Source: a virus (lineage: Duplodnaviria; Heunggongvirae; Uroviricota; Caudoviricetes). From it: a DNA stretch of 38,281 nt. Positions 31,443 through 36,740 of this stretch are shown in pieces; position 1 is the stretch's first letter, and every line of letters starts with the position of its first letter. The DNA is taken from the IMG/VR virus record IMGVR_UViG_2737471992_000010, positions 1 through 38,281 of that record; one strand, written 5' to 3'. Below the pieces are notes generated by a model, which was not told the DNA's origin, searched no databases, and saw nothing but the letters and a program-made list of their open reading frames with translations. The translations under genes and the position numbers were made by a program.

Positions 31443-32243
31443 TTACTTGATAAATCCTGCCGCCTTTCCCCGCCTGTATTCCTCCATCAGCCACTGCGCC
31501 GGTGTTATTCCCCCCAGGGTAGCGGCGTTAGGCATACACCCGAAACTTCGCCCTGGTGGATGGTAAACGTCTCTCCCTGTGTCCGGAGGCGTACTCATGG
31601 GTTCTGGCTTTGCCTGTATGCTGATCACCGGATCGGGTATCTGCTGTCCGGAAGCCACCTTTTTCGCCCAATCATCAAGCAGCCTGCGCGCGTGTTTCTC
31701 AACCTCAATCTCGCTAAGCTGGCGCTGATACATTGCACGGCGGGTATCACATACGACCCAGTACATAACCGGATGCCGCCACGGGAATCTTTCGGGACCA
31801 CCAGGATATAAACTTTTTTCCTTGCTGTACCGGTGAAACTCCGCCATCACATCGTCAATGGTGACGCCAAGAACCATCTTGCTGTCTTTACACCACTTGA
31901 TAAATTGCCCTGGCGACGGCCAGAACGGAGATTCACTGGCGCGGGCGTGGCGCATACCAGCAGAAACCTGTTCACGGGTTCGGATCCCCCCTTCGGCAAA
32001 CGCAGCAATCCACTGCTGTTTTGCAGCAACTTCCTGCTCTGGCGTCTTCAGGTTGGTTACCACTGCCGCCGGAAACAGTTGTTTCAACTGTTTGAAAAGG
32101 GCATCAACAAGCCTCTCTGCTGACATGTTCACTACGTTGTCATTGTTGGTGTACTGATGCTCATAACCTGACATGCGAGAAAGGGCTTCTCCGTCACGGT
32201 TTTGTATCGCGGTAAAAACGTTGTTCACAAGAAATCCTCCCAT
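31443..32243 (-). CDS. Replication protein P-like (helicase loader)
   Basis: Segment GMRHARASESPFWPSPGQFIKWC matches lambda P GMRVARRQNRPFLPSPGQFVAWC; start may be the internal ATG at 32174. Confidence 0.75.
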   Translation of the reverse strand: MGGFLVNNVFTAIQNRDGEALSRMSGYEHQYTNNDNVVNMSAERLVDALFKQLKQLFPAAVVTNLKTPEQEVAAKQQWIAAFAEGGIRTREQVSAGMRHARASESPFWPSPGQFIKWCKDSKMVLGVTIDDVMAEFHRYSKEKSLYPGGPERFPWRHPVMYWVVCDTRRAMYQRQLSEIEVEKHARRLLDDWAKKVASGQQIPDPVISIQAKPEPMSTPPDTGRDVYHPPGRSFGCMPNAATLGGITPAQWLMEEYRRGKAAGFIK

Positions 32244-33040
32244 GCTTCAGGGCTGTTCCAGTGCGGAACGTTGTTATCAGGTAATGTTGATTGCTTCTGT
32301 CTGCTAATCTGCAGCCGCCTTGCCAGCTTCTGCTCCCACTGTGCCTGATGGTATGCCCTACCCTCAGCCATCCAGTAAATTCTGAACTCTGCAAGTTCCT
32401 GTGCCGTTGGCAGACTGTCCAGGTAGATCCCCTGCAATGAGCTTTTCCGAAGAAAGTCATCTGATGGCTGCCATTGTTCATGCATGACAAATTTGCCTAA
32501 TTGCCCTGGCCCACCAGGAGGAACAAAGTTATTCATCACGGCGTTGTTTGCGCCGGGGTCATGATGCACAGAATCCCCGTTTTTTGTCCTGCTCTCCCTC
32601 TCTTGGTTAAATGACTGGTTATATGACTGGTTCTGGATCCCGTTTTTGGGATCATTCAACATCCCGTTTTTGGGATCATTCAACATCCCGTTTTTGGGTA
32701 TATTCCCGTTTTCGGGAACATTACCGTTTTCGGGTTCATTACCCCCTTCCCGGTTGCCTTTAATGTTCCCGTTTTTGGTTATATTAAGAGAGAAAACCCG
32801 CACTCTTTTCGTCGCTCCCTTTCTCTCTCCGGTATCTGAAATAAGCCCCATTTTCATGAGCGATATAAGCCCGGCCTGCACGGTTTTTTTATTCAGGCAA
32901 GTGTCTTTAACGAGGCGTTCTATGCTGGGGTAGCAGAGGTTATATTCATCGGCTCTGTCAGCCATCGAGAGCAGTATGAGCTTTAATGACGAGCTACCTG
33001 GATCTGTCTCCCAGGCCCAATCTGTTGCATGTCTGCTCAT
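32225..33040 (-). CDS. Replication initiator O-like protein with ori iterons inside the gene
   Basis: 271 aa; N-terminal HTH-like region, central NG/PENG/PKNG peptide repeats encoded by DNA iterons; immediately upstream of the P-like gene as in lambda O-P. Confidence 0.7.
   Translation of the reverse strand: MSRHATDWAWETDPGSSSLKLILLSMADRADEYNLCYPSIERLVKDTCLNKKTVQAGLISLMKMGLISDTGERKGATKRVRVFSLNITKNGNIKGNREGGNEPENGNVPENGNIPKNGMLNDPKNGMLNDPKNGIQNQSYNQSFNQERESRTKNGDSVHHDPGANNAVMNNFVPPGGPGQLGKFVMHEQWQPSDDFLRKSSLQGIYLDSLPTAQELAEFRIYWMAEGRAYHQAQWEQKLARRLQISRQKQSTLPDNNVPHWNSPEAWEDFL
32637..32781. repeat. Origin iterons: 5-6 copies of ATCCCGTTTTTGGGAT-like inverted repeat at about 24-bp spacing, followed by an AT-rich stretch
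   Basis: Perfect copies at 32637-32652 and 32661-32676; degenerate copies at 32685-32700, 32703-32718, 32721-32736 and about 32766-32781; AT-rich atattaagagagaaaa follows. Confidence 0.75.
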
Positions 33041-33055
33041 GATTAATCTCCGCTA

Positions 33056-33256
33056 TCAGCTTGAATGTTGTGGGGAGGAATTAATCATGATCTGCTTAAT
33101 CTCTGCCCTGATACGACGGTTTGATTCCATGGTGCACTCAACACAGTGTCCGTTGTAAACCCAGCGTTCACTGTCATGTCCGTGCTTACATGGTTTTCCG
33201 GTGTAGTAGCGTTTAAGTCCGCGCTTTGCGGCATCAATACGTGTAATGATTTCCAT
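33056..33256 (-). CDS. Small zinc-finger protein at the cII position
   Basis: About 66 aa from MEIITRIDAAKRGLKRYYTGKPCKHGH...YNGHCVEC; C-x-H...C-x2-C pattern; the start is uncertain (track ORF extends to 33325). Confidence 0.4.
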   Translation of the reverse strand: MEIITRIDAAKRGLKRYYTGKPCKHGHDSERWVYNGHCVECTMESNRRIRAEIKQIMINSSPQHSS

Positions 33257-33335
33257 GGTAAGCCCTGTTATTAGTATTGGGATTACGGTCATTTTGTGCT
33301 GACACAAAAAAAAGATCAACCACATTTGGTTATTT

Positions 33336-33352
33336 ATTACCTTTGAGGTACG
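33336..33352. promoter_or_regulatory. Imperfect 17-bp palindromic site ATTACC-TTTGA-GGTACG
   Basis: Left half-site perfect, right half-site with two mismatches; between the Cro-like stop and the zinc-finger gene. Confidence 0.35.
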
Positions 33353-33406
33353 AATAGATATGAAAAGACCGCCGGGTGGCGGTCTACAGAGGGTTGTAGC
33401 TGGATA

Positions 33407-33637: not shown

Positions 33638-33672
33638 AGCTATTGCCTGATATTTATTTCAGATAATAAATA

Positions 33673-33737
33673 TTCACCTATAAGGTAACAAAAATCAAGG
33701 ATAGTTACCCATGAGGTGCATTTACCTGTTGGGTAAT
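33673..33737. promoter_or_regulatory. OR-like operator cluster: three 17-bp sites (33673-33689 TTCACC-TATAA-GGTAAC; 33704-33720 GTTACC-CATGA-GGTGCA; 33721-33737 TTTACC-TGTTG-GGTAAT)
   Basis: Three tandem copies of the palindrome in the 154-bp divergent region between the Cro-like gene (start 33637) and the repressor gene (start 33792). Confidence 0.6.
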
Positions 33738-35802: not shown

Positions 35803-36740
35803 GCAACGACATCGCAAACATCAACGCACCAGTAGACACAGCAATCGCTGGAACTGCTGCAACTATTTTCAGCCCAGACGGCTTGAACCAACTGATGAAA
35901 TTCGCCGAGGTAATGGCGCAAAGCCGCGTAACGGTACCGGCGCACCTCGCCGGGAAACCAGCTGATTGCATGGCCGTGGCAATGCAGGCTGCGCAGTGGG
36001 GAATGAACCCGTTTGCCGTGGCTCAGAAAACCCATGTTGTGAACGGCACGCTAGGTTATGAAGCCCAATTAGTAAACGCAGTTATCTCAACGATGTCGCC
36101 AACAAAAGATCGCATCAACTACGAGTGGTTCGGGCCGTGGGAACGCGTGATCGGTAAGTTTGTTGAGAAAACATCCAAAAACGGCAATCCATATATCGCA
36201 CCAGGCTGGACTCTAAAAGACGAAGAAGGCTGCGGTGTTCGCGTATGGGCAACCATGAAGGGCGAGGATCAACCTCGAGTGCTTGAGTTAATGCTGTCTC
36301 AAGCACAGGTAAGAAACTCCACACTTTGGGCCAGTGATCCGAAACAACAACTCGCATACCTTGCGACAAAACGCTGGTCTCGCCTGCACTGTCCTGACGT
36401 AATCATGGGCGTCTACACCCCAGACGAATTACAGGAAACGGCACCGCGCGTTGAGCGAGACATTACTCCGCAAACGACCACTGCTGCGGGAATGAACAGT
36501 CTGATCAACGCTAAACCAGCGAAAAAGCCTGATGAGCAAACGCGTAAATCGGACAGCCGTGATCCAGAAGAAATGCTGATGGCCTTTACCAGCGCAGCGA
36601 TGAATTACAGCACTGTCTCCGAACTGGATAAGGCTTACAAATACATTGCACAAAAACTTTCAGATGATGACGAACTGCTGGCAAAAGCCACCGACGTTTA
36701 CAGCGTTCGTCGGGAAGAATTAAACGAAACATCTATGTAA
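35799..36740 (+). CDS. Single-strand annealing protein, Bet/RecT-like
   Basis: 313 aa from ATG 35799 (overlaps exonuclease stop as ATATGA); QWGMNPF and ERDITP segments echo lambda Bet QYGLNPW and ERDITP. Confidence 0.6.
   Translation: MSNDIANINAPVDTAIAGTAATIFSPDGLNQLMKFAEVMAQSRVTVPAHLAGKPADCMAVAMQAAQWGMNPFAVAQKTHVVNGTLGYEAQLVNAVISTMSPTKDRINYEWFGPWERVIGKFVEKTSKNGNPYIAPGWTLKDEEGCGVRVWATMKGEDQPRVLELMLSQAQVRNSTLWASDPKQQLAYLATKRWSRLHCPDVIMGVYTPDELQETAPRVERDITPQTTTAAGMNSLINAKPAKKPDEQTRKSDSRDPEEMLMAFTSAAMNYSTVSELDKAYKYIAQKLSDDDELLAKATDVYSVRREELNETSM

Follow-up and report, generated by a model that had tools for sequence, protein, structure and literature searches.

A short array of inverted repeats lies within the replication initiator gene of a phiV10-like (Uetakevirus) Escherichia coli prophage, and the question raised by this locus is whether the array forms part of a replication origin of the kind that bacteriophage lambda harbours inside its own initiator gene, O. 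The sequence analysed, hereafter the window, is the whole 38,281-nt stretch of IMG/VR record IMGVR_UViG_2737471992_000010, and all coordinates are positions in it. From sequence comparison we infer, with good confidence, that the array is where the initiator binds, in a lambda-style origin that lies inside the initiator's own gene and is served here by a protein of a different family. The case is built on the repeats and their symmetry, their conservation at the DNA level, their linkage to the N-terminal domain of the initiator, a conserved second element beside them and the gene context.

Seven units occupy positions 32637-32781 on the plus strand, six of them recognisable copies of the 16-bp sequence ATCCCGTTTTTGGGAT and one unrecognisable. 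The sequence itself, Tandem Repeats Finder, a pattern search and a per-unit table agree on this count. The preliminary description of the window, made from its letters alone, had reported five to six copies of a 16-bp inverted repeat, two of them perfect, and had suggested a tandem-repeat check; the count stands, as six units match the core CC-RANANN-GG, and the check agrees with the sequence and the pattern search. Its spacing of about 24 bp holds for the first three units only, the full series being 24, 24, 18, 18, 18 and 27 bp. The good units have 5-bp arms, ATCCC and GGGAT, around GTTTTT. On the gene strand they read CCC AAA AAC GGG, all in one reading frame, and encode the peptides TKNG, PENG and PKNG within the minus-strand initiator open reading frame (32225-33040), where NG/PENG peptide repeats had also been noted before. 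Shuffled sequences gave an expectation of 3.36 matches with at most 3 mismatches in the 38-kb window, and six occur within 145 bp (P ~6e-15, or ~1.5e-12 after correction for window position). The realistic null is tandem duplication rather than chance, and is addressed by the comparative tests below. The six units with a CCC-N6-GG(G/T) core sit between the N-terminal domain (N-domain; amino acids 1-85) and the C-terminal domain (C-domain; amino acids 181-265) of the initiator, as is characteristic of lambda-type iterons, of which at least four dyad-symmetric copies are expected in the linker.

The protein that carries this linker is composite. Pfam assigned HTH_36 to amino acids 18-67 (E 1.6e-10) and the DnaT DNA-binding domain to amino acids 184-252 (E 1.1e-15), and the whole matched PHROG 1032, 'replication initiation protein', with E 3e-108. 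Identity to the corresponding phiV10 gene, which is annotated 'replication initiation protein', is 97-99%, and 424 of 5426 complete E. coli genomes (~8%) carry the gene. The wing motif DTGE(R/K)(K/R)G of the N-domain is invariant in the alignment of relatives, and the features that mark HTH_36-type phage initiators, namely this wing, a CC-RANANN-GG array in the linker and AGAAYC repeats, are all present. When all PDB chains were searched with a profile of the N-domain at E<=10, no Rep protein came up, only weak generic winged-helix matches. The C-domain matched the DnaT chains 9zbt, 6aep and 4ou6 (E 1.7e-20); the full-length architecture of DnaT is not found here, since only amino acids 180-265 align, to DnaT residues 85-170, and the N-terminal half is HTH_36.

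Distant homologs of the N-domain were taken from phage records (Edwardsiella GF-2, Vibrio H20, Acinetobacter AP22 and PPompW) and from a further sample of 80 species-level genomes with N-domain identities of 41-87%, which covered Acinetobacter, Vibrio, Pseudoalteromonas, Marinomonas, Providencia, Edwardsiella, Enterobacter and Sulfuricella as well as sphingomonads and Desulfovibrionaceae. In Edwardsiella phage GF-2 the same N-domain and array are joined to a lambda-O-type C-half, followed by P, and in Vibrio H20 and Acinetobacter AP22 they are found with other C-halves, followed in AP22 by a helicase gene. Conversely, SPN1S, Tyrion and TL-2011b, which share the DnaT-like C-domain and have other N-domains, harbour neither the array nor the peptide repeat. 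By these comparisons the array is inherited together with the N-domain, irrespective of the C-domain attached. Lambdoid initiators are modular, the N-half determining origin specificity and the C-half loader specificity, and the co-inheritance of N-domain and array fits this pattern.

Beyond iteron 1 in the direction of the gene lies a second element, three 12-bp repeats that are conserved in the family. When loci were aligned by anchoring on the last iteron, three AGAAYC-type repeats were found after it, spaced 12 bp in 23 cases and 13 bp in 38, so that the repeats cross reading frames. Their density was 52/kb, against 3.8/kb elsewhere. Only one AT-rich peak is consistent in the family, at +30..+50 beyond the last iteron, where the AT content reaches 0.79 compared to 0.56 in the background. 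In the window lineage the tract in the corresponding place is polymorphic, and rich in G and A instead of A and T. Iterons, 12-mer repeats and then an A-rich or purine-rich tract succeed one another in gene direction, with the polarity known from lambda. The 12-mer element includes a 20-mer among the 1.67% least stable of the window, and we propose from its sequence that it may be an unwinding region or a region recognised as single-stranded DNA. An AT-rich stretch had previously been described as following the array. Such a patch does follow the array on the plus strand, at 32778-32797 (20 bp, 75% AT; its stability places it in the lowest 0.39% of 20-mers in the window), where it overlaps the last unit and codes for the end of the N-domain, but it is not conserved, the relatives having no AT peak at this position. 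The conserved element proposed to be of unwinding type is instead the one at 32599-32634 with the adjoining tract down to ~32572, outside the coordinates first reported.

This layout bears on the possibility that the units are initiator binding sites for autoregulation of the replication operon, copy control or handcuffing and that replication starts elsewhere. Plasmid iterons do act in autoregulation and handcuffing as well, and the present data do not locate the start of DNA synthesis. However, outside the array the pattern search found the motif in the window only once, as a 3-mismatch match at 36173, and the array is situated 400-800 bp downstream of the promoter region and not at the promoter. 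Moreover, the iterons, the conserved repeats, the A-rich tract and the adjacent loader gene together make up a complete lambda-type origin layout. A purely regulatory role is thus improbable, and the array as the initiator-binding part of an origin is the reading followed here.

Since all units in the window are in one frame and produce a regular peptide repeat, the selected entity could in principle be a flexible N-x-P-K-N-G peptide linker of which the DNA repeats are a by-product, and a similar N-x-P-x-x-G peptide does recur in distant homologs. Comparison among the relatives points the other way. Nearly all distant homologs carry the array at the same linker position. Within 84 distinct linkers (26 kb) the core CC-RANANN-GG occurred 303 times (11.5/kb), compared to 39 times in the 240 kb that flank them (0.16/kb), a ~70-fold enrichment, and CCC-N6-GGG reached 4.21/kb in linkers against 0.09/kb in the rest of the loci. 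This one DNA core is read in all three frames to give three unrelated peptides: P/T-K/E/N-x-G in 196 instances, x-Q-K-R-D/N (xCC CAA AAA CGG RAT) in 51 and V-P-T-T-E in 56. Of 162 proline codons within the motif 143 are CCC (88%), but only 84 of 545 (15%) elsewhere in the same genes, and where proline is replaced the codon is ACC, TCC or GCC only, such that CC is preserved. At the position of window 32716, in iteron 4, most relatives have ACC in place of CCC. The residues between proline and glycine vary (KN, KI, EN, IY, KF) while the centre of the DNA remains A/T-rich, and many units are perfect 12-bp palindromes (e.g. CCCAACGTTGGG, CCCAAATTTGGG and CCCAATATTGGG), as expected if the reader is a dimer. 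The use of three frames, the fixed codons with their xCC replacements, and the variable peptide over an A/T-rich centre and palindromes indicate that selection acts on the DNA. This DNA-level pattern holds in every genus examined and leaves selection for the peptide by itself a very small probability.

Variation among close relatives further delimits the element. In 77 complete genes from 80 sampled loci the 24-bp units numbered 2-6 and the 18-bp units 1-4, and close relatives had 2-3 of the 12-mers; phage BP9 has one 24-bp unit fewer and phiV10 one 12-mer more. All copy-number changes preserve the reading frame, and in no variant does the boundary of the last iteron with the 12-mers shift. 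Nucleotide diversity (pi), computed over 72 distinct near-identical genes, was 0.010 in the N-domain, 0.039 in the C-domain, 0.045 in the purine-rich tract and 0.053 in the degenerate unit 6 together with iteron 7. It was lowest in the 12-mers (0.0008, with 1 of 36 sites segregating). The stretch of iterons 1 and 2 (32637-32676) contained three singleton variants only (32660, 32675 and 32676), the first of which, in the spacer, was the only one within 32637-32660. This low diversity of iterons 1-2 and of the 12-mers suggests that the origin core consists of the proximal iterons and the 12-mers. A parallel is found in lambda, where the two iterons adjoining the AT-rich region suffice for replication in vitro (PMC7466680). 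The array as a neutral, slippage-prone minisatellite in a tolerant linker would account for the varying copy number among nearly identical phages and for the decayed, highly polymorphic unit at 32739-32754, but this explanation is very improbable. The motif keeps its position in homologs with as little as 41% identity in the N-domain, from Gamma-, Beta- and Alphaproteobacteria and from Desulfovibrionaceae genomes, polymorphism in the gene is lowest in the proximal units and the 12-mers, and the boundary next to them does not move.

The closest known system is the lambda origin, in which four iterons, ATCCCTCAAAACGAGGGA, lie in the linker-coding part of O with the AT-rich region next in gene direction (PMC7466680). 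Both loci have dyad-symmetric iterons in the inter-domain linker, a P-family loader directly downstream and a cro-side promoter upstream, the latter a candidate in the window. An A-rich region after the last iteron, the counterpart of the lambda unwinding region, is seen at the level of the family, the equivalent stretch of the window being only moderately AT-rich. The units share the outline ATCCC...AAAAC...GGGA(T), that of the window, ATCCCAAAAACGGGAT, being 3 bp shorter (CCC-N6-GGG). The lambda iterons are spaced 20, 24 and 23 bp and fall in three different frames of O, whereas the six usable units of the window are in one frame, hence the peptide repeat. The window also differs in that its N-domain is HTH_36 and not Phage_rep_O, its C-domain is DnaT-like and not that of lambda O, three conserved 12/13-bp repeats stand between the iterons and the A-rich tract, and this tract is GA-rich. 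With neither domain belonging to the lambda-O family, the name 'O-like' given to the gene in the preliminary description is appropriate in a loose sense only. The lambda-like ori-in-initiator arrangement proposed there is supported, at the level of sequence, by the constraint on the DNA, the dyads, the linker position together with the P gene, the co-inheritance with the N-domain and the lambda-like outline of the iterons. BLASTP of the N-domain against lambda O gave no real alignment. The N-halves of both proteins match PHROGs 678 and 345, which makes remote homology plausible and is the sole, and an indirect, link between them. The PHROGs of the lambda O C-half (277/2357) were matched by GF-2 and not by the window protein.

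Three other systems share parts of this organization. The Shiga toxin (Stx) phages 933W and P27 have six iterons to the four of lambda, with extra in-frame linker residues and with distal iterons that are weaker or degenerate (PMC7466680). As in the window, copy number differs between close relatives and the distal units are weaker, but the Stx phages encode true lambda-O proteins with lambda-type iterons, and copy number in the window group ranges more widely. Iteron plasmids (RK2 with TrfA, pPS10 with RepA, F with RepE; 13-mers in the DNA unwinding element) likewise combine a winged-helix initiator with direct repeats beside a repeat-containing unwinding element, and the short repeats of such an element are reported to be bound by the initiator as single-stranded DNA (PMC4081077). 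In contrast to these plasmids, the window N-domain is without sequence similarity to solved Rep proteins, the origin would lie inside the initiator gene, and the partner is a phage P-type loader. Finally, the C-terminal 85 residues of the window protein are ~50% identical to the single-stranded-DNA-binding C-domain of E. coli DnaT (primosomal protein I). Unlike DnaT, the N-region is replaced by HTH_36 and the linker, and the protein is phage-borne, paired with P and apparently outside the PriA/PriB pathway.

Several points weigh against the array being a lambda-type origin. The stretch downstream of the iterons in the window is 56-61% AT overall with one 20-mer at 75%, and the least stable 20-mer nearby is on the flank opposite to the 12-mers; the site of unwinding in this phage is for these reasons uncertain. 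Phage_rep_O (PF04492) gave no match to amino acids 1-85 at E<=5, compared to E 7e-37 for lambda O amino acids 1-118, and hhalign of the N-domain against lambda O gave a weak probability of 16%. A single-sequence structure prediction of the 271-residue initiator was unusable, with a mean predicted local distance difference test (pLDDT) score of 37.8. The family counts are phylogenetically non-independent, as Acinetobacter loci dominate and units within one array are duplicates. The RefSeq record of phiV10 has no origin annotated, and the accessible literature on the phiV10-like group holds no experimental evidence of binding or of an origin.

As to how the origin would be bound, opened and activated, and what the C-domain and P would contribute, we infer the following course. 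Dimers of the HTH_36 N-domain would bind the six dyad-symmetric CCC-N6-GGG units and form an O-some-like complex on the A-tract-containing DNA. The duplex would open downstream in gene direction, in the AGAAYC 12-mers at 32599-32634 and the purine-rich tract, and the DnaT-like C-domain, which has a single-stranded-DNA-binding fold, could together with the lambda-P-like protein recruit host DnaB. Transcription from the cro-side promoter through the origin may assist, as in lambda. Tentatively, and with considerable doubt, we suggest that the AGAAYC repeats might be recognised specifically within the unwinding region, perhaps as a single-stranded site for the initiator or a host factor. If so, this element would be shared by the widespread HTH_36 initiators in Proteobacteria and would represent an origin grammar undescribed for lambda. 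In phiV10-like phages the DnaT-derived domain might take the opened strand before P delivers DnaB.

The features of the locus are collected in Table 1. Genes are arranged in the order cI-like, cro-like, small gene, initiator and P-like. The P-like open reading frame has a possible ATG at 32243, and the phiV10 annotation starts five codons later, at GTG 32228. The latter, as annotated in phiV10, is the likely start, and would overlap the initiator stop codon by 4 nt, which suggests translational coupling. Transcription from the pR-like candidate promoter might, with low confidence, run through the origin; a terminator-like site is also present upstream of the initiator gene. The small gene (33056-33325, minus strand) occupies the position of lambda cII, and its product is without known function. 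Read mechanically it encodes 89 amino acids; its PHROG match spans amino acids 24-89 and its phiV10 homolog is annotated with 66, so that the true start is probably internal.

Table 1. Coordinates of the iteron array, its accompanying elements and the surrounding genes in the window.
Feature	Position	Strand	Basis and remarks
Lambda-P-family helicase-loader gene, directly downstream of initiator	31443..32243	-	Pfam Phage_lambda_P PF06992, E 1.5e-56; PHROG 109 'P-like helicase loader', E 2.4e-92
Replication initiator gene, 271 amino acids	32225..33040	-	Open reading frame; HTH_36 N-domain, repeat-encoding linker and DnaT-like C-domain
DnaT-like C-terminal domain, amino acids 181-265	32246..32500	-	~50% identical to E. 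coli DnaT residues 85-170
Purine-rich tract, 28/34 purines on gene strand	32572..32605	-	Placed like the A-rich tract in relatives and the AT-rich region in lambda
Three 12-bp repeats, gene strand AGAACCAGTCAT / ATAACCAGTCAT / TTAACCAAGAGA	32599..32634	-	Tandem Repeats Finder, period 12; family-conserved second element
Iteron 1, ATCCCGTTTTTGGGAT, perfect, nearest to 12-mer element	32637..32652		No variant inside unit among 72 distinct relatives
Iteron 2, ATCCCGTTTTTGGGAT, perfect	32661..32676		Pattern search, per-unit table
Iteron 3, ATCCCGTTTTTGGGTA, 2 mismatches	32685..32700		Pattern search, per-unit table
Iteron 4, TTCCCGTTTTCGGGAA, 3 mismatches, 6+6 palindrome TTCCCG-TTTT-CGGGAA, in 18-bp unit	32703..32718		Pattern search, per-unit table
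Iteron 5, TTACCGTTTTCGGGTT, 4 mismatches, in 18-bp unit	32721..32736		Pattern search, per-unit table
Degenerate unit 6, probably a decayed repeat rather than a site	32739..32754		9/16 mismatches, without dyad symmetry; in most polymorphic segment of gene
Iteron 7, TTCCCGTTTTTGGTTA, 4 mismatches, distal, adjoins N-domain coding part	32766..32781		Matches family core CC-RANANN-GG
N-terminal DNA-binding domain, amino acids 1-85, presumed iteron reader	32786..33040	-	HTH_36, E 2.6e-11 (N-domain alone)
pR-like promoter candidate upstream of cro-like gene, low confidence	33663..33691	-	Consensus scan only, 9/12 matches

The iteron sequence was not found as such in the literature searched, in which one unrelated primer-type match occurred, and the vB_EcoP_ZX5 paper makes no mention of an origin. 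Both the iteron family and the second element appear to be undescribed in that literature; the kind of element is textbook, and the general picture of how such origins work is unchanged. What is gained is a concrete, testable origin candidate for phiV10/Uetakevirus-type prophages, phiV10 itself being used as an O157 reporter and typing phage. A second large family of initiators, spread across Proteobacteria, would thereby share with lambda the location of the origin within the gene for the initiator. The combination of an HTH_36 domain, a CC-RANANN-GG array, AGAAYC repeats and an A-rich tract provides a searchable signature, with uses in origin annotation, in predicting replication incompatibility or specificity of co-resident prophages and in phage engineering, where it is relevant because the linker is not freely recodable.

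Some further observations concern the array and its surroundings. An iteron-like site at 32572-32590 (gene strand ACAAAAAACGGGGAT, TKNGD) was considered as an eighth iteron and rejected, since it does not match the family core and the relatives have not conserved it; a relic or a chance resemblance is the probable explanation. The search for DnaA boxes gave a single 1-mismatch match (32562), judged to be chance, and an Rfam scan of 32000-33400 gave nothing but a chance match to a microRNA model (E 0.69). A stretch of 42 bp contains three GATC (Dam) sites (32636, 32650 and 32674), which are located at the ends of iterons 1 and 2 (GATCCC...GGGATC), the rate in the window being 3.66/kb. GAT-CCC is present in each unit in the enterobacterial relatives too, and not in those from Vibrio and Acinetobacter. 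Effects of methylation or SeqA have been reported for Stx-phage replicons (PMC7466680), and by analogy methylation or SeqA might modulate this prophage origin. A terminator scan flagged 32647-32666 and 32671-32690 on the plus strand, antisense to the gene, because adjacent iterons pair (GGGAT...ATCCC) and the T-run of the next unit comes after the pairing stretch; these flags are probably a by-product of iteron symmetry.

Related initiator genes were also encountered in less expected contexts. In the duck E. coli strains HL15 and SF10 the initiator gene is on 41,027-bp circular records deposited as plasmids (pHL15EC-2; NZ_CP079771.1 and NZ_CP079768.1), and both strains carry a further copy on the chromosome, close to the end of a record. 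The circular records look like phiV10-like phage genomes assembled as episomes. The phiV10-type cI/cro/initiator/P block is also found in PP488543.1 (phage BP9, 138 kb, classified as a lytic Vequintavirus), near the record end, and in PP350014.1 (PH444, 115 kb); these records are possibly chimeric assemblies or contain contaminating prophage DNA. The initiator gene of Salmonella phage SPN1S has repeats of its own, built on GTCCGC/GCGGAC (L168:1073-1124 and 1320-1376), which may be the iterons of an alternative N-domain module.

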